DNA of 53,157 nt from an uncultured Candidatus Saccharibacteria bacterium (GCA_964466475.1 CAYXNB010000002.1:1-53157); one strand, 5' to 3'. Numbered from the stretch's first letter, positions 1,873-51,607 are shown. Made by a program: numbers and translations. The notes: a model not told the origin generated them from the sequence alone.

Positions 1873-3240
1873 ATGAAGAAAATTTCTGCTCTGTTTTTCG
1901 TTCTCACAATAATCGCAAATGCCGCCTCGCCGTATTCCGCACGCGCGCAAAATCTCTCCCCGGACGGTAAAACCCGGGCCGAACTCGAAGCCGAACTCGC
2001 GGAGCTGGAGCGCAAAATCGAAGAACAGCAAAAGGAAGTAACCAAGTACAAAACCCAGGGCACGACCCTGAAAAACGAGATAAATTCCCTGAACGCGCGA
2101 ATCAATAAACTAAATCTCCAGATCAAATCCCTTGACCTTACTATAGAAAAAGTCGGGCAAAACATAGTGGAAACTCAGCGAAGCATCCTGACCACGGAAC
2201 AAAAAATAGAAATACATAAAGATGCCCTGACAACCGCCGTGCGCAATCTCTACGAACAGGATCAGGAGGGTCTTGTGGAGATTCTCTTGAAAAACAAAGA
2301 ACTCTCGGACTTCTTCGGCGGCATGAACGAGATAGCGAGAGTGCAGACCAATCTCCGCGTGGCGCTTGAAGAGATTATGGGCCTCCGCCAAAATCTTGTC
2401 GCGCAAAAAAATGAACTCGAACTCGAAAAACGGGATAATGAAAATCTAAAGCAGGCCCAGGAACGGCAGAAACAAACCACCCAACTGACTCAAAAAGAAA
2501 AAGATCAGTTGTTGAAAGCCACGAAAGGAAAAGAATCCGAATATCAGAAACTATTGGAAAAATCCAAAGAAACCGCGGCGCAAATCAGAAGCCGCATCTT
2601 CCAGCTTTTGGGCGGCGGAGAACTGACCTTTGAAAAGGCGTACGAATTCGCCAAGCTCGCGGAAAAAGCGACCGGAGTCCGCGCCGCCTTTATCCTCGCG
2701 ATCTTAAACCAGGAATCCGCCTTCGGCCGGAACGTAGGCCAGTGCAAATACAACACCATCATGTCCCAGACCGGAAAGACCGTCATGCGCCCCTCGGACA
2801 TCCCTTATTTCGAGGAGCTCCTTCGCCGCCTCGGCATTGATCCGGAATCCCGCGCCGCCTATGTCTCCTGCCCTATTTTGCGGGACGGCAATCACGGAGG
2901 CGCGATGGGTCCGGCACAATTCATCCCTTCCACGTGGAAATTATATGAAAAAGAAATCGCCCGCGTAACGGGCAATAACCCCCCGAACCCGTGGTCAAAC
3001 TCTGATGCCTTTGCGGGCACCGCCCTCTATCTCAAGGACTCCCTAAACTCGTCATCATGCAGAAATTACGTGAATGAAAACAAACACATCGCGGACGCGC
3101 AAATCCTGGCCGAACGCTGCGCCGCCTCCCAATACTACGCCGGAGGCAGGTGGTATACCTACCGCTGGGTCTATGGAGAACCGGTGATCCAAAAAGCCCA
3201 AAAATTCCAGGCGGATATAAACGTATTGGAAGGGGCGTAA
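1873..3240 (+). CDS. Secreted coiled-coil protein with C-terminal lytic transglycosylase (MltB/SLT-like) domain
   Basis: Signal peptide MKKISALFFVLTIIANAASPYSARA, a long heptad-rich region, then ILNQESAFG and GAMGPAQFIPSTW, which are transglycosylase motifs. Confidence 0.75.
   Translation: MKKISALFFVLTIIANAASPYSARAQNLSPDGKTRAELEAELAELERKIEEQQKEVTKYKTQGTTLKNEINSLNARINKLNLQIKSLDLTIEKVGQNIVETQRSILTTEQKIEIHKDALTTAVRNLYEQDQEGLVEILLKNKELSDFFGGMNEIARVQTNLRVALEEIMGLRQNLVAQKNELELEKRDNENLKQAQERQKQTTQLTQKEKDQLLKATKGKESEYQKLLEKSKETAAQIRSRIFQLLGGGELTFEKAYEFAKLAEKATGVRAAFILAILNQESAFGRNVGQCKYNTIMSQTGKTVMRPSDIPYFEELLRRLGIDPESRAAYVSCPILRDGNHGGAMGPAQFIPSTWKLYEKEIARVTGNNPPNPWSNSDAFAGTALYLKDSLNSSSCRNYVNENKHIADAQILAERCAASQYYAGGRWYTYRWVYGEPVIQKAQKFQADINVLEGA
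3197..3233 (+). repeat. 37-bp direct repeat, copy 1 (3' end of the transglycosylase gene)
   Basis: cccaaaaattccaggcggatataaacgtattggaagg matches 5239-5275 at 36 of 37 positions. Confidence 0.9.
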
Positions 3241-3262
3241 ATTAACATCTATAATAAAACAC

Positions 3263-5236
3263 ATGTCATTCAATCCGGAAGTTCACATGTTCCAAATCCC
3301 GGAAGAAAACACGCGAGCAAAATCGGCAGAACTCGCGGAGAATCTGATGGAATTAAGCGCGGAAATAAGCGCGTGCGTACCGAAGAACGTGGAGATATTT
3401 ACATCGCCGGAATCAAAAACCCGACAAGATCTCTATTATGAAATATCTGCCGCCTGCACGGCCCAAGAGCAAGGCGGAGAAATCCCTGAAAAAACCTTAA
3501 ACCAGATTGCGGCCGACATGACAATATTCCTTGGTGAACATCCATTCAATAAAAGAATCGTATTCTATTACCCGGCGCACCTGATGCCGGATTGCGGAAA
3601 AGAACAAAGACAAAAAAATCCGGAACGCGAAACATTCGCGAAAACTTACGCCGAAAAATGGAAAGAACTCGTCATGGGAGAAAGCGCCGAAGAATCCATG
3701 GAGGCGCTGGAACAAATATCCGCGCTTCTTGAAAAAAATATCGTTACGCCGAATGAGGTGGAAGAAATAATCAGAAATCCGGCGGTCGCGCGAAACGCGA
3801 TGTGCGTGCCGGAATGCGTTACTTCAAAAATTTTTGACAGACAAACCTTTCCGCTAAATGAGTGGAAAAACGCGGTTGAGTCGGCCGCGTCCCGTTTTGA
3901 GGCGCAGCAATACCTGCAAATCTTACCAACCCTCATGGAATACGGGATAGCGGACGCGGATTCGTGGGAAAAAGCAATTCACAACGAAAAAACTCATATC
4001 CGGACAGAAGCCGCGCTGATTGTTCCGCGAATGATAGAAAAAGGAAAAATACGATTTTCAACGGAAGAGTGGAGAGATCTCGCAAGAAATTCCTCGCTAA
4101 GCGTTCGAGAGGCCGCCTTTTCCATATTATCCGACCTGCTCCGTCTTGGGGCAATAACAAAAGAAACTCTGCCCATCGAAGAAATACGAAAAGCCGCGGC
4201 CGGGAAAGACACGGCTCTGCAGGAACACATTATAGATTCTTTTCCGGAATTGATGGAAATGGGCATGATATCAATCGGACAATGGAAAAATCTGCTAAAA
4301 AACCCGAAAAAAGAAATTAGAGAAAAAGCAATAAGTATCCTGCCAGAATTGACGGGTAAAAATCTTCTGACAAAAGAAAATTTTCAAACACCGGAATGGA
4401 TCGCCCTTCTTACAGACAACGAGGAAGACGTCCGAAGAAAAGCGGCAAAAATGATAGGAGCGCTTCTGGACGCGGGTATAATAGAAAATACCGACACATA
4501 CCGGCAACTCCTCCAAAGCACCGACAAGGCAACTCGTTCGGGAGCGATAGAAATCCTGTCCGCGCAAATACGCAAGGGCAGAATAACGCCAAAAGAAATC
4601 ACCGAGCTTACCATGCAAATACCGAACCTTACGCTCCCGCGGGGATTCACGGAAAACCCTGACCTGAAAGAAGTGGTAATGGATGTAAAAATGTTACGAA
4701 AAGCGATTCAAAAAATCGCGCAAAAACACCCAAAAATGCTGCCGGGGTTCCTTCTTCTTGGATCAGCGGCAAAAGGCTACAGCGTTCCGTCGTCCGACCT
4801 GGATATCGCCATAATAATTCAAAAAGATATTTCTTTTGAGGAGCAGGAGGAGATACAAAACGCGATTATACAAGCGGGATTAGAGATGAATGTGATTATA
4901 GACGGATATCACACAATCCCTGTGTCTGATTTTGAACAACCCCGCCTCGCGTCAATGCTTCCGGAAGAAGAGATAGCGACACTCATGATAGGAGAAGTAG
5001 TCGGATCCGATGCGATGGTAAAAGTCCGAGATGCGATTATCAAGGACTTCCAAGAAAAAACGACGGAAAAAGAAGAAACAAATGTCTTGCGAACTATGGA
5101 AACGCACCTGCTTCGCTGGAATATCGCCGAGGAAGCGATGCAACGGGCATATACAAGAGAAAAACCTTACGACAAAAAAGATCCGCAATATAAAGAAGTC
5201 GCGACGCTCGCCTTCCTTACGAAACTGGTTTTATAA
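3263..5236 (+). CDS. HEAT-like repeat protein with C-terminal minimal nucleotidyltransferase (pol-beta superfamily) domain
   Basis: Repeated xxVRxxAaxiLxxLxxxG units (SVREAAFSILSDLL, EIREKAISILPEL, DVRRKAAKMIGALL, ATRSGAIEILSAQI), then LLLGSAAKGYSVPSSDLDIAIII, a GS...DxD nucleotidyltransferase motif. Confidence 0.7.
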   Translation: MSFNPEVHMFQIPEENTRAKSAELAENLMELSAEISACVPKNVEIFTSPESKTRQDLYYEISAACTAQEQGGEIPEKTLNQIAADMTIFLGEHPFNKRIVFYYPAHLMPDCGKEQRQKNPERETFAKTYAEKWKELVMGESAEESMEALEQISALLEKNIVTPNEVEEIIRNPAVARNAMCVPECVTSKIFDRQTFPLNEWKNAVESAASRFEAQQYLQILPTLMEYGIADADSWEKAIHNEKTHIRTEAALIVPRMIEKGKIRFSTEEWRDLARNSSLSVREAAFSILSDLLRLGAITKETLPIEEIRKAAAGKDTALQEHIIDSFPELMEMGMISIGQWKNLLKNPKKEIREKAISILPELTGKNLLTKENFQTPEWIALLTDNEEDVRRKAAKMIGALLDAGIIENTDTYRQLLQSTDKATRSGAIEILSAQIRKGRITPKEITELTMQIPNLTLPRGFTENPDLKEVVMDVKMLRKAIQKIAQKHPKMLPGFLLLGSAAKGYSVPSSDLDIAIIIQKDISFEEQEEIQNAIIQAGLEMNVIIDGYHTIPVSDFEQPRLASMLPEEEIATLMIGEVVGSDAMVKVRDAIIKDFQEKTTEKEETNVLRTMETHLLRWNIAEEAMQRAYTREKPYDKKDPQYKEVATLAFLTKLVL

Positions 5237-5238
5237 AT

Positions 5239-5275
5239 CCCAAAAATTCCAGGCGGATATAAACGTGTTGGAAGG
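5239..5275 (+). repeat. 37-bp direct repeat, copy 2 (orphan gene 3' end followed by stop and terminator)
   Basis: cccaaaaattccaggcggatataaacgtgttggaagg. It still encodes ..QKFQADINVLEG, followed by a stop codon. Confidence 0.9.
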
Positions 5276-5285
5276 AATGTAAAAT

Positions 5286-5309
5286 AAGCGCACCCTAAAA
5301 GGTGCGCTT
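5286..5309. terminator. Bidirectional hairpin between convergent genes
   Basis: aagcgcacc ctaaaa ggtgcgctt. Confidence 0.65.
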
Positions 5310-14548: not shown

Positions 14549-14586
14549 AATTTCGTGGATTCGGATAATTCGTAGTTTCGGAACGA

Positions 14587-15588
14587 TTACAGCGGTTCTA
14601 CATCCAAATCAAGATACTTCCATCTCTTGTCCGCGAACTGCTTTTTTGTAAGCACTCCGGCCTGTGCCCCGATATCTTCCACCACAGAAGTCGCGTTTGC
14701 GGTCCCGAGCCGCAAGGCGTAGGGAATGTCCCCGCCCTGCAAAAGTCCGGCGACAAATCCGGATCCAAAGGCATCCCCGGCTCCGGTCCTGTCCTTCACC
14801 TCGCCGGAAAAAATGCCCGCGCGATACAGATATCTGCCGTCCGAAACGAGCGACCCCTTCCCCCCCTCTGTCATTACCGCGATCCCGGGCACCACCCCGT
14901 CAAAAGCGCGAAAAATATTTTTTTCCTTGGCGTAATCCTCGCGGGTAAGCTCCGCCGCCTCTTCGCGGTTCATAAACACGATATCGGTTTTCTGAAATAC
15001 GGGTGAAAGTTTCCGCAAACCCAGTTTCAGATGAAACTTCGAGGGCGCGAGAGCAATCTTCGCCCCAGCCCGCTTCCCGTGCTCCACGAGGGAAAGCAGG
15101 AGCGCGAAAGGAAGATGTCCGGAAACAACGTAAAGCCACTTGGCCTTAAGTTTGGAAAACGGAATGTCTTTTTTTGAGATCGCGCTCGAGGCCCCGCGAT
15201 AGGCAAGCACCGTGCGCTCCCCGTCCTTGTTTAAAATAATGGTTGAGTACCCCGTGCCCTCTTTTGTGTCAAAAGAAACAAAAGGAGTAATTCCCGCACC
15301 CTTCACAAAACGCGCGATTCCCTCGCCAAACTCGTCCTTTCCCACCTTAAAACAGGCGCCCGTCCGAAACCCGAAAGAAGCAAAAGTAAAGGCCGCGTTC
15401 AAGGCCCCGCCCCCCAAAGTCATGACGGGCCGCTCAATCTCCATCTTCGCGCCCATGGCAAAGCACTCGGCCTCTTCGGACCGAAAGCCCAATTTTTCAA
15501 GAAAAGTCCGGTCTCGGGTCACCGTAAAGCCCTCGCCCGTAATAAACACGTCGCGGGTCGCCGTCCCCAAAGTAATCACATCCAGCAT
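14587..15588 (-). CDS. PfkB-family carbohydrate kinase
   Basis: C-terminal DRTGAGDAFGSGFVAGL ribokinase/PfkB signature. Confidence 0.85.
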   Translation of the reverse strand: MLDVITLGTATRDVFITGEGFTVTRDRTFLEKLGFRSEEAECFAMGAKMEIERPVMTLGGGALNAAFTFASFGFRTGACFKVGKDEFGEGIARFVKGAGITPFVSFDTKEGTGYSTIILNKDGERTVLAYRGASSAISKKDIPFSKLKAKWLYVVSGHLPFALLLSLVEHGKRAGAKIALAPSKFHLKLGLRKLSPVFQKTDIVFMNREEAAELTREDYAKEKNIFRAFDGVVPGIAVMTEGGKGSLVSDGRYLYRAGIFSGEVKDRTGAGDAFGSGFVAGLLQGGDIPYALRLGTANATSVVEDIGAQAGVLTKKQFADKRWKYLDLDVEPL

Positions 15589-19997: not shown

Positions 19998-21014
19998 CTA
20001 CCGAATTTCCGCGTATGGCTGGAATGTTTCCGAAGTCCGAATCGGCAACTCTTCCACCCGAGAAACCTTTTCGTCCCGAATGAAGACGCGAAGCATGAGC
20101 CCCCGCATGGTCTCTTCCGAAAAACTCTGGTCAAACACAAAATTCCCCAAACTATACGCGATCCATCCGTCCTTATATTTCTCAACTTCCTGTACCACGT
20201 GCGGATGATGTCCGACTACCAAATCCGCCCCGGCATCTATAATCGCGCGAGCAACTTCTCTTTGTGCGACACTCGAACTCGTTGCGTACTCCTCGCCCCA
20301 ATGATACGAAACTACGAGAATATCCGCCTGCCCGCGCGCCTCCGCGACGCGTTCCAAAACATACTCCAAACGCGCATCGCTCACTCCGGGCCGCTCTTCC
20401 CCGGCAACCAATCCCTCAGGATACAAATTCGTATATGCCAAAAAACCAACTCGAATTTCACGAGCCGAAGGCGAGTTAATTTCTACAAATTTCGTTTCAT
20501 TCGCCTCTTCATAATTTCTCCCCGCCCCCACGGGCGCGATATTATTTTCTTTCAAAAGCGTAATCGTATCCTCCAGAGCATCCTGACCCCAGTCCATAAT
20601 GTGATTGTTCGCGAGAGACAAAACATCAAACCCCGCGAGCCGAAGTCCTTCGATAACCCGCGGATCCGCGCGAAAAGAATATATCGAGCCCTGATTCGCT
20701 CCGCGCGAAGAAATAGGACCCTCAAGGTTTCCAAATGTAATGTCCGCAGAGGCAAGCGTGTCCGCTATCAACCGAAACGGATACGCGAAATCACTTTCCC
20801 TTTGCATCGCGGCTCCCACGCTCCTTGAGAGCATAATATCCCCGACAAAAAGCAGTTCCACCTCTTTCGTAGATTCGGATAATTCGTAGTTTCGGAGCGG
20901 TTCTCTTTGTAGATTCGGAAGATTCGTGGTTTCGGAGCGGTTTAAAAAATACAAAACCCCCGAAAACCCGAAGGATACAAGTGAAAGTAAAAAAACAAAA
21001 ATCCAATACCTCAC
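19998..21014 (-). CDS. capA: CapA-family metallophosphatase (poly-gamma-glutamate synthesis-like)
   Basis: VGDIML, LANNHIMDWG, VSYHWGEEY and VVGHHPHVVQ. An N-terminal TM segment is followed by a region encoded by a tandem nucleotide repeat. Confidence 0.8.
   Translation of the reverse strand: MRYWIFVFLLSLVSFGFSGVLYFLNRSETTNLPNLQREPLRNYELSESTKEVELLFVGDIMLSRSVGAAMQRESDFAYPFRLIADTLASADITFGNLEGPISSRGANQGSIYSFRADPRVIEGLRLAGFDVLSLANNHIMDWGQDALEDTITLLKENNIAPVGAGRNYEEANETKFVEINSPSAREIRVGFLAYTNLYPEGLVAGEERPGVSDARLEYVLERVAEARGQADILVVSYHWGEEYATSSSVAQREVARAIIDAGADLVVGHHPHVVQEVEKYKDGWIAYSLGNFVFDQSFSEETMRGLMLRVFIRDEKVSRVEELPIRTSETFQPYAEIR
20865..20940 (-). repeat. Two imperfect tandem units (about 35-40 nt) with four TTCGGA half-sites, inside the capA 5' region
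   Basis: tttcgtagattcggataattcgtagtttcggagcgg followed by tttgtagattcggaagattcgtggtttcggagcgg. The 25-mer at 20872-20896 is identical to 14558-14582. Confidence 0.85.
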
Positions 21015-27203: not shown

Positions 27204-27432
27204 GAATCTCTCCTTATGATTGAGAAGCAACTCTCGCAGACGCGCCGGGCTTGGTCCCCGAAGGGGCCGGCGCGTCGAGAGCGTAGTGGGTTCATTCGTC
27301 CGGGGGATGAATGAACAGGCGACAAACCTTGTGCGATAGAATGTCGCCCGGGAGCGAAGAGTCGCTGGAAGATTCGTTCGTCCGGGGGACGAACGAATGA
27401 CACCCGGTGCTTCGAAACATAAGGAGAGATTC
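27204..27432 (+). ncRNA. Family-A structured element, copy 1 (unknown class)
   Basis: A 15-bp closing stem (27204-27218 with 27418-27432). A 70-nt core is 97% identical to 51479-51548, and a conserved 3' segment ccggtgcttcgaaaca is also shared. Three extra hairpins lie in the variable region. Confidence 0.6.
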
Positions 27433-27439
27433 CGCAACT

Positions 27440-28810
27440 ATGGAACACAAAAATTTCAAACTTCCTCCCCAAGATCTGGAAGCCGAAACATCCGTCCTCG
27501 GCGCCTTGATGCTGGACAAAGACGCGATCCTGAAAATCGCGGACACGCTCGCCCCGAACGACTTCTACGCTCCGGGCCACCAAAAAATATACAAAGCCGC
27601 GCTCGAACTCTTTGAACAGGGCAAACCCATTGACGCCCTGACCATCCAGGCGCGCCTGAAGGAAAAAAGCGAACTGGAGGGTGTGGGCGGGGCGTCATAT
27701 CTGTCGGATCTCATTGAATCAGTTCCCTCTTCCGCGCACATCACGCACTACGCGGACATCGTGCGTGAAAAACGGGTGCGCCGCGACCTCCTCCGCGCCT
27801 CCTCGGAAATAAATGAAAAAGCGTTTGATCCGGAAAATTTTGAAGAAATTCTGGACGGCATCGAAAAACGCATCTTCTCCATCTCCCAGCTCTCGCAAAC
27901 GCAAAAATTCGTACATGTAAAAGACGAGCTCGCCTCGAGTTTTGAACGCTTCCAAAAGCTCCACGAAGGCGAAGGGGGGCTTCGCGGAGTGCCGACAGGA
28001 TTTTCTAAACTCGATTCTATTCTCTCCGGATTCCAAAGGTCCGACCTCATCCTCCTCGGCGCCCGCCCCTCGTTCGGAAAAACATCTCTCGCGCTCGACA
28101 TGGCGCGGCACGCGGCTCACGCGGGATTTTCAGTGGGGATCTTCTCCATCGAAATGTCCATCGAACAGATCATGGATCGTCTGATCGCCTCCGAAGCTCA
28201 GGTGCCGCTCTGGAAAATGCGCACCGGACGCCTGCGGGATGAAACCGACTTTGAACTGATCCAGCATGCTCTAGGCAAACTCTCGGAACTGAAACTTTTT
28301 GTTGACGACACCCCCTCGCCAACCATTCTCCAGATGCGTTCTATGGCGCGCCGCCTGCAGATGGAGCACGGCCTTGATCTGGTGGTAATCGATTACCTCC
28401 AACTCGTCAAACCAAGAAGCGAAGCGGCGGGCATGGTCCAGCAGGTTACGGAAATTTCACGCGGACTGAAATCTCTGGCGCGCGAAATGAACGTGCCCGT
28501 CCTTGCCCTCTCCCAGCTCTCCCGCGGCGTGGACAAGCGCGAAGGCGACAAAACTCCCCGCCTTTCGGATTTAAGAGAATCGGGATCTCTCGAGCAAGAC
28601 GCCGACGTGGTGATGTTTCTCGCGCGCAAAGACAGAGAAAACTACGGGTCGGAAAAGCACGAAGCGCTCTCGGACGAAGACCAAAATACCGTGCGCATCG
28701 TGGTGGCAAAACACAGAAACGGACCCTTGGGAGATGTAAGATTAAAATTCGACGCGGAACGCGTCTCATTCCGAAGTATCGACGAACATCATAGCAATGA
28801 TAATTTCTAA
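27440..28810 (+). CDS. dnaB: Replicative DNA helicase DnaB
   Basis: PPQDLEAETSVLGALM N-terminus and Walker A GARPSFGKTSLAL. Start moved to MEHKNF. Confidence 0.95.
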   Translation: MEHKNFKLPPQDLEAETSVLGALMLDKDAILKIADTLAPNDFYAPGHQKIYKAALELFEQGKPIDALTIQARLKEKSELEGVGGASYLSDLIESVPSSAHITHYADIVREKRVRRDLLRASSEINEKAFDPENFEEILDGIEKRIFSISQLSQTQKFVHVKDELASSFERFQKLHEGEGGLRGVPTGFSKLDSILSGFQRSDLILLGARPSFGKTSLALDMARHAAHAGFSVGIFSIEMSIEQIMDRLIASEAQVPLWKMRTGRLRDETDFELIQHALGKLSELKLFVDDTPSPTILQMRSMARRLQMEHGLDLVVIDYLQLVKPRSEAAGMVQQVTEISRGLKSLAREMNVPVLALSQLSRGVDKREGDKTPRLSDLRESGSLEQDADVVMFLARKDRENYGSEKHEALSDEDQNTVRIVVAKHRNGPLGDVRLKFDAERVSFRSIDEHHSNDNF

Positions 28811-30773: not shown

Positions 30774-30832
30774 AGTAAAGAAAATACACGAAAAAAAGAA
30801 TTAGGTCAACTCGACATTAGATTCGCATTAAA

Positions 30833-31062
30833 GGAAACTTCGCCGCAGTGTTCGAGCGGATTCTGAGGCCGTTTTGGCATGGTCTCCGACCCGCCGTCCG
30901 CCGACTGGCGGAGGCGGGGAGGAGCAAAACGGCCGAGGCCTCGGAGCAAGCGGCTGGGCCCAATCGTCCGGGGGACGATTGGGCGGGCAAGCAACCGAAG
31001 TTATAATCCGTGCTTGCCCGGGACCGAGCGAGAATGAGCGAGGACACTGCGGCGGAGTTTCC
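30833..31062 (+). ncRNA. Family-B structured element, copy 1 (unknown class)
   Basis: An 18-bp closing stem (30833-30850 with 31045-31062) encloses at least 4 internal helices. Differences from the 50244-50452 copy are compensatory. G-U pairs favour the + strand. Confidence 0.65.
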
Positions 31063-31070
31063 GTACCAGC

Positions 31071-31114
31071 AAAATAAAAACAAAGCCCCTCCGACGCTGT
31101 GTCAAGGGGCTTTG
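31071..31114 (-). terminator. Intrinsic terminator of the membrane-protein gene
   Basis: Minus strand reads caaagcccct tgacacagcgtcgg aggggctttg tttttatttt. Confidence 0.7.
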
Positions 31115-31138
31115 TAAATCTCAATTTGAGCGAAAAGC

Positions 31139-35861: not shown

Positions 35862-36100
35862 AATTCAAAAAATATAACGAAAAATCCCATAACAAGCAAC
35901 AACACAAATACACGATAGGCCGAGGGAGCGATGTTTCGAACGCTTTTCGGAGCGGAGCCGACCATTCTGCGAACGAATAGCGATTTTCCAGGGAACCCCC
36001 GCCGAATAGGCGAGTGGGTCGGAAAATCGCGTATATGAGTGAGCAAAGAATGGTGCGACGCGGAGAATTAGTGAGAAACATTGCTCACTCGAGCCGAAGA

Positions 36101-39100
36101 TCACCCCTCGCACGACTCACAAACCTCCCCTACAACCTGCACCTCTCGGGCCGCTTCGTCAAGCGGCAAAGATCCCGAATGCACTGAAGGACTGCCTTTT
36201 GTCAAGCTAAAATTCGCTGCGTCCGCGATCACTTCCGACGGACGCGCGGAAACCAAAACCGCCTCTCGTTCTTCGCGCGCCGCGGATTTCTGAGACGCAC
36301 CCTCCGCTTTCGAAGCGTCCTCGTATTTCTTGTTAATGTCAAGCGTGCTCTTTTCAATACCCGAGGCGGCGAGCGTCCGGAGATAATACGTGGTCTTAAG
36401 ACCCATGCTCCACGCGGCCATATAGATATCCGAAAGCGCCTTCCCGGACTTAGTGCTGGTAAAAATATTCAGCGACTGGCTCTGGTCAATCCATTTTCCG
36501 CGGTAGGCGGCATGTTTTAAAAGCCATATGGGTTCAACCTCAAACACCTCTTTGTATTTGGCGCGAAGTTCAGCCGGAATTTCCGCAATCGACTGAACGC
36601 TCCCGTCATAATACTTGATACGCAAAAGCATGGACTCGTCCCAGAGGCCCGCCCTCTGCAAATCCTCCACCAGATACTCGTTAATAATGGTAAATTCGCC
36701 GCTAAAGTTCGATTTGGTATAAACATTTTTATAAATAGGCTCGATGGAAGGAACGCATCCGTTGATATTCGCGTTTGTCGCGGTAGGGGCGATCGCCATG
36801 CAGTTTGAATTCCTCATGCCGTACATTCGCACATGTTCCCGGACGGGGGCCCAATCCATCCGTTCGCGAAGGTCCAGATGAGTGGATACGCCGCGCTCCT
36901 CCTCCAGAAGCCGGACCGTATCTACCGGAAAGATCCCGCGATCCCATTTCGAGCCCCGGTACGTCTCGTACGTCCCGCGCTCCTTGGCAAGTTCCGAGGA
37001 ACCGAGGACCGCATGATAAGAAATAAATTCCATAAGCCGGTCGGAAAGATCCACCGCCTCGTCAGAATCAAAGCGCATTTCCATAAGGTACAGGGCATCC
37101 TGAAATCCCATTAGTCCGAGACCTACCGGCCGGTGCCGCAAGTTTGAATACTTGGCCTCCGGCGTAGGATAAAAATTGGGATCAATGACATTATCAAGCA
37201 TGCGCATCGCGGTCCGCACGCTCCGTCCAAGTTCCTCCCAATTAAACTGAGTTCCGGAAATATGCCGCGAAAGATTGACCGATCCCAGGTTGCAGACCGC
37301 GGTCTCGTCGCGCGAAGTGTTCAGGGTGATTTCCGTGCATAAATTTGAACTATGCACCACCCCCGCGTGATCCTGCGGACTCCTCACGTTGCAGGCATCT
37401 TTGAACGTAATCCAAGGATGTCCCGTTTCGTAGAGTTGAGTAAGCATCTTTCGCCACAAATCTCGCGCCCTCATCCTCTTCCAAAGATTAATCCTCCCCT
37501 GGTCCGCGAGCGCCTCATATTCCTCGTAACGCTTCTTGAAGGCGGCGCCGTACATATGGTGCAGATCCGGAGTTTCATCCGGAGAAAAAAGCGTCCATTC
37601 GCCGTCATCGCGAATCCGCTCCATAAAAAGATCCGGAACCCAGTTCGCGGTATTGGTGTCATGGGTTCGTCTCCGGTCGTCTCCGGTATTTTTACGAAGC
37701 TCCAAAAACGCCTCAATATCATAATGCCACGTCTCGAGATACACGCACGTGGCGCCCCTGCGCTTTCCGGATCTGTTTATTGCCGCAGTGGTCGCGTCCA
37801 CGATCTTCAAAAAAGGAATGACTCCCTGACTCCCCACGTTCGTGGATTTGATCATCGCCCCGGTTCCGCGAAGATTCGTCCAGTCGTTCGCCACTCCCCC
37901 GCTCCACTTGGAAAGTTGGGCATTATCGCCCACACACTTGAAAATATGGTGCAGATCGTCCTCCACCGTGGTCAGAAAGCAGGAGCTCATCTGGGGATGC
38001 TTGGTGCCCGCGTGAAAAAGCGTGGGCGTGGAAGGCACATAATAAAGTTGGGACATTACATTGTAAAACTCAACGGCCCGATCCTCGGGATTCGGCTCAT
38101 CAAGCGCCAGCCCCATGGCAACCCGCATCCAGAAGTACTGGGGAACCTCCAGGTGATTTTGGTCGTAATCGCGCAAAAAATAGCGGTCATACAGGGTCTG
38201 CGCTCCCAAATACTTCAAAAACGAATCCCGCTCGATCTGAATGGCATCCTGCAAGCGGACAAAATCAAAATCAAGCATCCGTTCTTCCAGTCGCCCGCAT
38301 TCCACCCCCCTTCGAATGGCGCGCGCGAGCCCCTTGCGATACTGCGCGTCAAATCCCTCCTCAAACTCCGCAAGTCCCAAAACGTCTTTATAGAGATCGT
38401 TAAAAAGCAGTTTTGCGGAAAGATAAGAATACAAAGGGTCCCGCTCAATACGCCCGCGCAAAACCATAATAACGGCCTTGTTGATATCACGGGTCGAAAT
38501 GCCGTCATACAAATTTTTCTTCGCCTCCTCGATAATCTCGACAAGCGAGGTCTCCTCTATAGCGGATCCGAAAACACCTCGCAAAAATTCGGCAATATGA
38601 GAGATGTCAAAAAACGCCTGCGTGCCGTCGCGCTTCTTCACGCGGATCTCGCTCCGCTCGATCTTTTGCAAAAGATCATGCCGTCGCGCCTCGCGCGCCC
38701 GCTCACGCTCTTTGCGGTATAAAATATACGATTTCGAAACCTCAAAAAGCCCGTGCTCCGCTATTTTCCGCTCTACGGAATCCTGCACATCCTCAACCGA
38801 AGGCACGACACCGCGAAAACGTGATTCAATATCCTCCACCACGCGATCCGTAATGGCTCCGACAACAACGGAAGAAACGGAAACCCCGGTCGCCGCGCAA
38901 GCCCGTTCAATCACCCGCTCGATCTTGGCCGGATCAAACTCCACAATACGGCCATCGCGCTTTTTCACCTGCTCCACCCTGCCATCGCGAATAAGGTAGG
39001 CGGCGTGCCGCAGGGCGATCTGCCGATCCCGCTCCTCACGCAATTTTTCACGCTCCTTGCGGTATAAAATATATGATTTCGCGACGTGAAAAAGTCCGTT

Positions 39101-39328
39101 TTCCGCGAGCACCCGCTCCACCGTGTCCTGCACGTTTTCAACTGAAGGAGTTGCCTCCTCGAAATCAGGCTTTAATTTCTGGATCACCTTCCCGGCAAGC
39201 GCGCGCAGCAATTCAGGGGTATAAGGGGTATGGGTCGCCAGGCACGCCTTCTCTATTGCGTGCTCGATCCTCGTCCGATCAAACGATACAACCCGGCCGT
39301 CCCGCTTGGTGATATATTGTATAGACAT
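36101..39328 (-). CDS. nrdA: Class I ribonucleotide reductase alpha subunit with three N-terminal ATP-cone-like repeats
   Basis: Catalytic SSNLCTEI and a C-terminal CESCEG tail. ATP-cone starts are ITKRDGRVVSFDRTRIEHAIEKA, VKKRDGRIVEFDPAKIERVIERA and VKKRDGTQAFFDISHI. Confidence 0.95.
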   Translation of the reverse strand: MSIQYITKRDGRVVSFDRTRIEHAIEKACLATHTPYTPELLRALAGKVIQKLKPDFEEATPSVENVQDTVERVLAENGLFHVAKSYILYRKEREKLREERDRQIALRHAAYLIRDGRVEQVKKRDGRIVEFDPAKIERVIERACAATGVSVSSVVVGAITDRVVEDIESRFRGVVPSVEDVQDSVERKIAEHGLFEVSKSYILYRKERERAREARRHDLLQKIERSEIRVKKRDGTQAFFDISHIAEFLRGVFGSAIEETSLVEIIEEAKKNLYDGISTRDINKAVIMVLRGRIERDPLYSYLSAKLLFNDLYKDVLGLAEFEEGFDAQYRKGLARAIRRGVECGRLEERMLDFDFVRLQDAIQIERDSFLKYLGAQTLYDRYFLRDYDQNHLEVPQYFWMRVAMGLALDEPNPEDRAVEFYNVMSQLYYVPSTPTLFHAGTKHPQMSSCFLTTVEDDLHHIFKCVGDNAQLSKWSGGVANDWTNLRGTGAMIKSTNVGSQGVIPFLKIVDATTAAINRSGKRRGATCVYLETWHYDIEAFLELRKNTGDDRRRTHDTNTANWVPDLFMERIRDDGEWTLFSPDETPDLHHMYGAAFKKRYEEYEALADQGRINLWKRMRARDLWRKMLTQLYETGHPWITFKDACNVRSPQDHAGVVHSSNLCTEITLNTSRDETAVCNLGSVNLSRHISGTQFNWEELGRSVRTAMRMLDNVIDPNFYPTPEAKYSNLRHRPVGLGLMGFQDALYLMEMRFDSDEAVDLSDRLMEFISYHAVLGSSELAKERGTYETYRGSKWDRGIFPVDTVRLLEEERGVSTHLDLRERMDWAPVREHVRMYGMRNSNCMAIAPTATNANINGCVPSIEPIYKNVYTKSNFSGEFTIINEYLVEDLQRAGLWDESMLLRIKYYDGSVQSIAEIPAELRAKYKEVFEVEPIWLLKHAAYRGKWIDQSQSLNIFTSTKSGKALSDIYMAAWSMGLKTTYYLRTLAASGIEKSTLDINKKYEDASKAEGASQKSAAREEREAVLVSARPSEVIADAANFSLTKGSPSVHSGSLPLDEAAREVQVVGEVCESCEG

Positions 39329-50243: not shown

Positions 50244-50452
50244 AGAAACTCTGCCGCGGTGTTCGAGCGGATTCTGAGGCCGTTTTGGCATGGTCTCCGA
50301 GCCGAGCGAGGAGCAAAACGGCCGAAGCCTCGGAGCGAGCGGCTGGGCCTAATTGTCCGGGGGACAATTAGGCGGGCAAGATACCGAAGTAATAAATCGA
50401 ATCTTGCCCTGGACCGAGCGAGAATGAGCGAGGGCACTGCGGCAGAGTTTCC
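50244..50452 (+). ncRNA. Family-B structured element, copy 2
   Basis: Same architecture as 30833-31062. Closing stem is 50244-50261 with 50435-50452. It has a shorter apical hairpin and compensatory substitutions in three helices. Confidence 0.65.
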
Positions 50453-51462: not shown

Positions 51463-51607
51463 GCGCAAGGCGGTTTTGATTTAGAAGCAACTCTCGGAGA
51501 CGCGCCGGGCTTGGTCCCCGAAGGGGCCGGCGCGTCGAGAGCGTAGTGCTGCGCCGTGCCGCCGGAGCACGGCGACAGCCGGTGCTTCGAAACAAAACCG
51601 CTTGCGC
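51463..51607 (+). ncRNA. Family-A structured element, copy 2 (compact version)
   Basis: The closing stem (51463-51478 with 51593-51607) has a different sequence from copy 1 but is still complementary. The core is identical. A single hairpin gccgtgc..gcacggc replaces the three hairpins of copy 1. Confidence 0.6.

Follow-up and report, generated by a model that had tools for sequence, protein, structure and literature searches.

Bacterial miniature inverted-repeat transposable elements (MITEs) with a TA duplication include Correia/NEMIS, ERIC and the IS630-derived MITEs. REPINs, which are REP doublets forming hairpins, are mobilised by RAYT transposases (Bertels & Rainey 2011, PMC3116915); compensatory changes are common in these mobile hairpins, which are predicted to fold in single-stranded DNA or in mRNA (PMC3116915). 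The orphan structured bacterial RNAs are represented by HEARO, raiA, ROOL, GOLLD and OLE (Rfam; for the ornate ones see PMC12286853). Here we describe an element present as two copies, B1 (30833-31062, + strand) and B2 (50244-50452, + strand), in a stretch of 53,157 nucleotides from an uncultured Candidatus Saccharibacteria bacterium (GCA_964466475.1 CAYXNB010000002.1:1-53157), the whole of which is referred to below as the window. The element is small, mobile and structure-preserving, as are REPINs and MITEs; its copies in the candidate phyla radiation (CPR) nevertheless fail the defining features of those systems, and its pattern of conservation resembles that of the orphan structured RNAs. 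The reading that we favour, to which we give about an even chance, is that B1 and B2 are copies of a multi-copy, non-coding and non-autonomous mobile element whose single-strand fold, most probably formed in RNA, is under selection.

B1 is an intergenic sequence of 230 bases and one member of a non-coding repeat family. An earlier note on this DNA had described two copies sharing a multi-helix fold, and this description holds: in a pairwise alignment B1 and B2 were 88% identical with a 22-column gap in the apical hairpin, and the minimum free energy (MFE) of the + strand was -146.2 kcal/mol for B1 (z -11.1) and -111.9 kcal/mol for B2 (z -8.7), values that were reached by none of 200 shuffles in either case. 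The closing helix P1 is likewise present, although it is 21 bp long rather than 18 bp, and in the MFE fold as well as in the pair counts of homologs it joins a 5' arm GGAAACUUCGCCGCAGUGUUC (30833-30853) to a 3' arm GGACACUGCGGCGGAGUUUCC (31042-31062); in B2 the corresponding arms are 50245-50264 and 50432-50452. Four P1 positions differ between B1 and B2 and all are still paired, one of them through a C-G to U-A double change. Next to P1 lies a purine loop in which GAGCGG (30854-30859) faces GAGCGA (31036-31041), and then a short helix, P1b, of AUU (30860-30862) with AAU (31033-31035). The P2 arm GGCCGUUUUG / CAAAACGGCC (30867-30934), which the MFE fold contains as it had been proposed, carries a 7-nt bulge, GCAUGGU (30877-30883), followed by an apical hairpin with a variable tip on a CUCC-GA...GA-GGAG base; the base is as described, and the tip of B1 is longer by 21-22 nt, not by 27 nt. 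Beyond P2 are an invariant CCUCGGAGC (30939-30947), of which CUCG (30940-30943) is the 5' strand of a helix that we term P3, and an invariant 3' motif GAGCGAGAAUGAGCGAGG (31026-31043 in B1, 50416-50433 in B2), exact in both copies, which comprises the 3' strand of P3 (CGAG, 31029-31032) together with the AAU and GAGCGA segments given above. Within the P3 loop is an optional module (30958-31019) made up of a 12-bp hairpin with a GUCC-GGG-GGAC tip (30958-30984) and a 9-bp hairpin (30985-31019), both as reported before. Alignment bore out that the helix differences listed between the copies, including those in this module, are compensated and that the mismatches that remain are G-U on the + strand. 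Within the invariant 3' motif an AUG also overlaps a UGA (AAUGA), a few nucleotides after a GGAG. A small open reading frame (ORF) starting at this AUG was considered and rejected: the peptides are short, the hypervariability of P1 leaves them unconserved, and B1 and B2 have different frames.

Scans of genome and metagenome collections identified about 40 distinct homologs in Patescibacteria and Nitrospirota, the further family members that the earlier note had called for. The exact 18-mer GAGCGAGAATGAGCGAGG was found at 34 loci in species-representative genomes, and 14 of these were true homologs: four contigs of the Hainich groundwater Patescibacteria metagenome-assembled genome (MAG) H43-bin010_1, one of them with two copies, one Saccharibacteria MAG, and nine Nitrospirota contigs, including Nitrospira and Thermodesulfovibrionales. 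Metagenomes were searched with the pattern CCTCGGAGC-N0-30-GAGCG-NNNNN-GAGCGAG, in which AGAAU was left free; AGAAU was present in every true match, and the other pentamers belonged to chance matches in G+C-rich coding DNA. A profile search of the fetched loci added more diverged copies, giving three within 5.6 kb on contig L129, where they lie among ordinary genes, and a second copy on each of L027 and L100. An alignment of 30 sequences, none from the window and each with a fixed 16-bp piece of either P1 arm (alignment A2), was used to build a covariance model, and this gave scores of 53.1 bits (E = 3e-11) for B2 and 23.8 bits (E = 6e-4) for B1, whose inserts make its match only a local one. 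By the present tally there are two canonical copies and one diverged copy in the window and at least five copies in the H43 MAG. No blastn match to the element was found in plasmid and phage collections, the multi-motif pattern gave no match in viral contigs, and a profile search showed each of the 120 loci found in viral contigs with a 15-mer to be a chance match. We regard the family and its fold as established, and conclude that the family crosses phyla, occurring in both Patescibacteria and Nitrospirota, and is not a pair specific to one genome.

The homologs reveal which parts of the element are free to vary. P1 is 16-26 bp long across the family and its sequence is unrelated between lineages, although it is always paired; it differs between copies of one CPR genome, yet is common to B1 and B2. 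Some CPR copies have a P1 that is A-rich at its start and U-rich at its end, for example GGAAAAAACC...GGUUUUUUCC, a feature that is not general in Nitrospirota. In the purine loop the 5' GAGCGG is near-invariant and the 3' GAGCGA is invariant, with the central two G-C pairs kept in 29-30 of the 30 sequences, and the loop reads as a tandem G-A step in a stable CGAG context, two G-C pairs, and then G-A and G-G. From the work of SantaLucia & Turner on (rGGCGAGCC)2, tandem sheared G-A pairs are said to be most stable in a 5'-CGAG-3' context, and the loop beside P1 reads C-GA-G on both strands; this likeness is one of sequence, and a tandem sheared G-A is a local structural motif, not a family. The U-A pairs of the AUU/AAU helix are invariant in all 30 sequences and its first pair is A-U or G-U in 20; since its 3' side never varies, no covariation is possible there. 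P2 and the invariant CUCG/CGAG helix, P3, complete a three-way junction, and the loop of P3 accepts optional hairpins. Most Nitrospirota have a P2 of UUUUGCC/GGCAAAA and some one of UUUUCUC/GAGAAAA, and CPR copies have the B1 form; P2 has a free tip of variable length and a bulge of 6-7 nt (GAUAKUC or GCAUGGU) that is conserved. CCUCGGAGC, unchanged in 28 of the 30 homologs, has a CUCG able to pair with CGAG of the 3' motif, and in L100 an optional hairpin sits directly inside that helix. The earlier note had instead extended P2 by a ctgag/ctcgg pairing, which does not stand as a family feature because it occurs in only some CPR copies, and neither the Nitrospirota nor the Saccharibacteria homologs have it; CUCG pairs more consistently with CGAG of the 3' motif than with ctgag, both partners being invariant and so beyond the reach of covariation. 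The two-hairpin module is confined to B1 and B2 among the copies of the family, as it is missing from every homolog outside the window. The copies of the Hainich relative lack both hairpins, and one of them (L004) also lacks P2; the element is therefore modular.

Pair counts in A2 gave 95.5% standard pairs, compared with 40-57% in slid controls. Double-sided changes were seen in 23 of the 37 pairs, against 12.0 +/- 1.6 in shuffles, of which 0 of 500 scored as high, and they were contributed by 15 of the 16 aligned P1 pairs and six of the seven P2 pairs. RNAalifold, unaided, recovered P1, the G-C pairs of the loop and CUCG/CGAG. Covariation of P1 and P2 is established by these counts, and the proposal of the earlier note that selection acts on structure and not on coding is upheld, as the substitutions of homologs keep the helices. 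Between three pairs of copies whose orthology was judged by their flanks (L027/L033, L071/L107 and L090/L092), eight of nine P1 differences switch among standard pairs and one involves A-C. This is suggestive of a structural constraint that persists after insertion, from small numbers of unpolarised changes.

The fold is also biased to one strand. Reverse complements of B1 and B2 folded more weakly by about 14 kcal/mol, and the MFE of the + strand was the lower in 34 of 34 copies, with a mean difference of 11.3 kcal/mol. A fixed 16-bp window of P1, anchored on conserved motifs alone so as to avoid a biased choice of pairs, contained 447 Watson-Crick pairs, 81 G-U, 3 A-C and 13 other mismatches in the 34 elements, a G-U share of 15%. 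In a duplex or a cruciform, G-T and A-C would be equally costly, and the constraint is therefore on the + strand as a single strand. With the strand thus assigned, RNA is the simplest reading and a single-stranded DNA intermediate a less likely one.

The window belongs to a lineage of Patescibacteria near Jorgensenbacteria. The closest relative in the collections was the Hainich H43 organism, with RecG 84% and the CmpX-like protein 89% identical to those of the window. Its cmpX-rplU gap is 94 nt, compared with 365 nt in the window, and its gap downstream of recG is 75 nt, compared with 242 nt. In the relative (L136/L137), GGAGTCAAC runs directly into the cmpX terminator ACAAACCCCCC; the window has 269 extra nt (30811-31079, + strand) between GGTCAAC and ACAAAGCCCC, so that the B1 insertion is placed between the terminator and the -35 box of rplU. 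B1 does not fill the whole intergenic space, as had been stated, since the hairpin of the cmpX terminator (31078-31120, on the strand opposite to B1), which adjoins B1, lies in the 365-nt gap too, as does a promoter-like site for rplU, TTGACC-17-TATTTT (30809-30781, - strand), at the left junction of the insertion. The rplU -35 box is kept in the relative, which has no B1 insertion. After recG the relative (L133) has just a plain hairpin, following the same AAAAGAAAC tract that precedes B2. Both window sites are therefore empty in the closest relative, and the element, with its presence and absence established at orthologous sites, is insertion-polymorphic. The relative has copies of its own elsewhere, for example between ribonucleotide reductase genes (L136 5542-5675), and its copy loci hold no canonical copy in the window. 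The sole shared site is this ribonucleotide reductase gap, in which the window has a third, diverged family-like element (35922-36090, + strand). It matched the full covariance model at 21.9 bits (E about 0.002), folded 13 kcal/mol better on the + strand (-87.5 versus -74.3 kcal/mol), and has the same site and relative orientation as the canonical copy of the H43 relative. No copy was found in about 100 kb of other Jorgensenbacteria-like contigs.

A subgroup of the Nitrospira type provides a further view of how the element travels. In 20 loci of this subgroup the conserved unit extends past P1 to inverted ends of 17-20 bp, TAACCCACATAATTCATAAA, present at both ends; the copies lie at many unrelated loci and most are flanked by TA (CA at both sides in L131). 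Such ends and flanks are those expected of a MITE that duplicates 2 bp, and carriage of the element by a MITE is established for Nitrospira. Besides G-U, the outer ends show A-C and A-A mismatches, unlike P1, as counted by eye in three copies. The element is thus found both with and without MITE ends. Among the examined loci there was no autonomous element with the same inverted ends, which bracket just the 175-235 bp element. An origin of P1 from a hairpin already present at the target was rejected for B1, B2 and the Nitrospira subgroup, as the whole of P1 is common to different loci; for older copies such an origin is possible.

Set against the systems introduced at the outset, the element shares with REPINs that it is short, non-coding, multi-copy, intergenic, non-autonomous and persistent in genomes, with a long single-strand hairpin and compensatory changes. 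REPINs, however, have conserved 16-mers in their arms and a variable spacer, and here the arrangement is reversed, with variable P1 arms and an invariant centre; the element also has a three-way junction, spans two phyla, and had no RAYT gene nearby at the loci seen. As with MITEs, it is 100-250 bp long, intergenic, insertion-polymorphic, present at several unrelated loci and variable through internal insertions; genuine inverted ends with TA on either side are seen in the Nitrospira subgroup, and MITEs fold as RNA when transcribed. MITEs have conserved ends and a drifting interior, whereas in this element the core does not vary between phyla and the closing helix shows strand-specific covariation, and its CPR copies, including those in the window, have neither separate inverted ends nor a duplication. 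With the orphan structured RNAs it has in common discovery by comparison, a multi-helix form, conserved loops, optional stems, a patchy distribution and, as is sometimes the case for them, a link to mobility. It has no sequence or structure match to HEARO, raiA, ROOL, GOLLD or OLE, is much smaller than ROOL, GOLLD and OLE, and is not tied to a gene as HEARO is to IscB. A retron msr-msd would be similar in its variable closing stem (compare a1/a2), in a G in AGC context right after the 5' arm and in its internal stem-loops, but the element has no long msd hairpin, and the reverse transcriptase gene that follows a retron was absent from about 35 loci, which had no recurrent neighbour gene either. 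Retrons and diversity-generating retroelements (DGRs) were accordingly rejected; a 119-nt repeat pair of the window (see below) lies inside an ORF and is not adenine-specific.

The earlier note had found no known RNA class, and searches with Rfam 15 (4227 models) agree. At the gathering threshold the whole window gave just the small subunit rRNA and three tRNAs, and at E up to 10 the sequences of B1, B2 and the homologs L021 and L014 gave only chance matches of miRNA and snoRNA type far below threshold; the models for hammerhead, twister, twister-sister, pistol, hatchet and HDV gave no match at E up to 10. Searches of the literature by sequence and topic, and of annotated records, returned no description of the element. 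A tRNA-like nature was considered, as GUGUCCGAGCGG resembles the D-arm of a class II tRNA, and rejected, as there is no T-arm and neither ARAGORN nor the Rfam tRNA model matched; both saw three ordinary tRNAs in the window and no tRNA or tmRNA at the element. A likeness to 5S rRNA in the GAUGGU-type bulge was also set aside, since the order of the arms differs and Rfam gave no match. From its sequence, the element matches no catalogued Rfam 15 family and is best read as new.

An all-against-all BLAST of the ORFs flanking 34 elements found no conserved neighbouring gene. Pfam assigned rplU, a cmpX-like gene and recG at the flanks in the window, along with small proteins that have no Pfam match, and the flanks of L129 are ordinary genes as well. 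Orientation with respect to neighbours is mixed, being convergent, divergent or co-directional; convergent genes border many copies, and at least six run antisense to the genes on both sides. TnpB, IscB and IS110 recombinase, which would be expected beside an omega/reRNA or a bridge RNA, adjoined none of the copies, and no Y1/HUH transposase was seen near any copy in the loci inspected, which are parts of the carrier genomes. B1 and rplU are on opposite strands, with B1 upstream of the rplU promoter-like site, and neighbours of different copies are unrelated, unlike what is seen for a riboswitch or leader. We infer that the element is not a regulator of one particular neighbouring gene.

In the mobile-element reading that we favour, P1 would clamp the two ends of the element, the only requirement being a long duplex, and the invariant purine-rich core around the junction would probably be a docking platform for a trans-acting protein. 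The fold would then serve the propagation or persistence of the element itself, as the feature by which an enzyme provided in trans recognises the element for mobilisation or processing. Several observations weigh against this. No protein partner or mobilising enzyme was found near the copies. Neither B1 nor B2 has a sigma-70-like promoter or an intrinsic terminator on the + strand, and a scan of both strands found no G+C-rich hairpin with a direct U tract; -10-like hexamers were not enriched upstream of P1 in 19 independent copies (six, versus four downstream), the promoter scan being based on consensus sequences from which the promoters of these phyla may differ. B1 is flanked by a terminator and a promoter that both serve the opposite strand, and it is not obvious that read-through would transcribe B1. 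The AUU/AAU and CUCG/CGAG helices and the geometry of the loop are invariant, so that covariation is no test of them, and CUCGG has several possible partners. The invariance of the 3' motif is inflated, since the patterns used to find homologs contained it, and copies from the profile search do show variants of it. G-T wobble is tolerated in single-stranded DNA hairpins too, so that the strand bias is no proof of RNA. Finally, no ends separate from P1 exist in the window copies, and comparison with L136 showed no target duplication at the B1 junctions.

The other explanations share much of this evidence. It is possible, and we put it forward tentatively, that the element is a new functional RNA class, a compact three-way-junction scaffold for a ribonucleoprotein, possibly catalytic, which is mobile and exchanged between CPR and Nitrospirota. 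Exchange would take place between bacteria that share groundwater and sediment habitats, the GAGCG and tandem-GA loops would be read by some protein, and Family A (see below) and the ribonucleotide reductase gap element, as related mosaics, would belong to the same system. Rather unlikely is a family of genes for a trans-acting small RNA that serves the host, for example as a scaffold or sponge for a protein reading GAGCG and tandem-GA, with its spread incidental. Invariant loops beside freely covarying helices are what functional RNAs show, substitutions at orthologous loci preserve structure, the element is kept at the same ribonucleotide reductase site in two diverged CPR genomes, and the module, which occurs whether or not MITE ends are present, is an independent unit; moreover, streamlined CPR genomes seldom retain useless DNA. 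On the other hand, the missing promoter and terminator signals count here as well, a needed RNA gene would not be expected to differ in copy number and position between close relatives or to be absent from related contigs, and there is no obvious rationale for several copies with different P1 sequences in one genome. A new self-cleaving or catalytic RNA carried by a mobile element would be in keeping with invariant nucleotides that cluster in internal loops and around the junction, with variable and optional stems, and with the multi-copy, patchy distribution that bacterial self-cleaving ribozyme classes have; we consider it highly improbable, as almost no conserved nucleotides are unpaired at the junction and likeness to the known ribozyme models was lacking even at E = 10.

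A non-autonomous single-stranded DNA transposon of the REPIN/RAYT or IS200/IS605 kind, its + strand read by a strand-specific enzyme of HUH type and RNA being irrelevant, would account for strand-specific pairing that tolerates G-T, for GAGCG motifs repeated in direct orientation on one strand and for insertion polymorphism without target duplication in CPR, and REPINs set a precedent for mobile hairpins with compensatory changes (PMC3116915). Co-orientation of the five structured elements in the window, and of all copies on L026 (three) and L100 (two), also fits. We nevertheless regard this explanation as unlikely: the Nitrospirota contigs have mixed orientations, no Y1/HUH transposase lies near the copies, although whole genomes were not covered, and a conserved centre with variable arms is the reverse of REPINs. 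In addition, the folded strand has a negative GC skew and lies opposite the 16S gene, and by the usual rule would not be the lagging-strand template used by IS608-type elements, and 15% G-U in P1 and a three-way junction rich in G-A loops are typical of RNA. Action in cis on the transcripts of neighbours, as a terminator, an insulator between convergent genes or a site for RNase III or mRNA stability, is suggested by B2 taking the very position that a plain hairpin occupies in the relative after the common tract, by B1 adjoining the cmpX terminator, by the A-rich start and U-rich end of P1 in CPR copies and by the many copies between convergent genes. Such a role is distinctly improbable given that the terminator scan was empty at B1 and B2, that orientation with respect to the nearest gene ends is about even, with six copies antisense to both neighbours, and that the U-rich end is not general in Nitrospirota; a simple hairpin would suffice for it, leaving the junction core invariant across phyla unexplained. 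An ordinary palindromic repeat of double-stranded DNA, a protein-binding or cruciform site without single-strand function, is scarcely credible with 81 G-U against 3 A-C in P1 and a more stable + strand in 34 of 34 copies, even though the GAGCGAG direct repeats within the 3' motif are 11 bp apart, a spacing typical of DNA-binding sites, and the outer Nitrospira ends, judged by eye in three copies, have no G-U bias, as for ends that act at the DNA level.

The window also has a second element family, Family A, with copies at 27204-27432 and 51474-51600 (+ strand) that differ by a swapped central module. Family A has in common with the B elements the GUCC-GGG-GGAC hairpin with the hairpin that follows it, and a bulged hairpin, G-CWUGGU-CCCC; the two-hairpin module of B1 and B2 recurs at 27287-27350. 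The first Family A copy (A1) lies in the cysS-dnaB gap, which is only about 110 nt in the relative, and it is therefore also an insertion. Its outer stem of 18 bp pairs 27204-27221 with 27415-27432, and the Shine-Dalgarno sequence of dnaB, AAGGAGAG, lies in the 3' arm immediately ahead of the ATG at 27440, so that this copy could mask the initiation of dnaB translation. All five structured elements of the window are on the + strand, whose GC skew is negative throughout and which lies opposite the 16S gene; copies are co-oriented on the CPR contigs L026 (3/3) and L100 (2/2) and mixed on the Nitrospirota contigs L129 and L027. The recG downstream gap of a further relative (L134 12179-12558) has two different long hairpin elements, one with a GAGGCCGAGCGAGCGAGGGCGAG loop, and therefore several kinds of GAGCG-rich hairpin element would exist in this CPR clade, with the recG gap as a hotspot.

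Other features of the window and of related sequences were recorded in passing. The 5' part of a 16S rRNA gene (1-583, - strand) matches model positions 1-405 over 583 nt and has an insertion of about 170 nt with a 30-bp stem (194-223 with 360-389), which looks like an intervening sequence and is unrelated to the B family. DnaB is 467 amino acids long in the window and 894 amino acids in the relative (L136 15350-18034), where it contains an intein and a LAGLIDADG domain, and one RecG homolog of 865 amino acids (P0003) has an inserted domain of the GxxExxY family. Short direct repeats of 38 nt occur three times (14551-14588 and 20865-20942) and of 53 nt at two gene ends (3193-3245 and 5235-5287). 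A pair of 119-nt repeats (38685-38803 and 39030-39148), roughly 75-80% identical, lies inside an ORF of 1075 amino acids (36101-39328, - strand); as a template and variable repeat of a DGR it was rejected, being an internal repeat of protein-coding sequence.

CPR genomes are roughly 1 Mb in size with little room for junk, and their structured RNAs are almost unexplored; despite this compactness, five related structured elements lie in one window of 53 kb. An invariant core in two distant phyla, together with a closing helix that covaries at almost all positions and with clear mobility, makes the element a well-defined experimental target as regards a transcript, a protein partner and the mode of movement. 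If it is the single-strand fold that is mobilised, bacteria would have in this element a counterpart of non-autonomous elements that depend on structure, unlike either REPINs or classical MITEs; if instead it is an RNA that serves the host, it would represent a new and widespread class of non-coding RNA. In either case it would be usable as a marker of gene flow between CPR and Nitrospirota and is a candidate for inclusion in Rfam.

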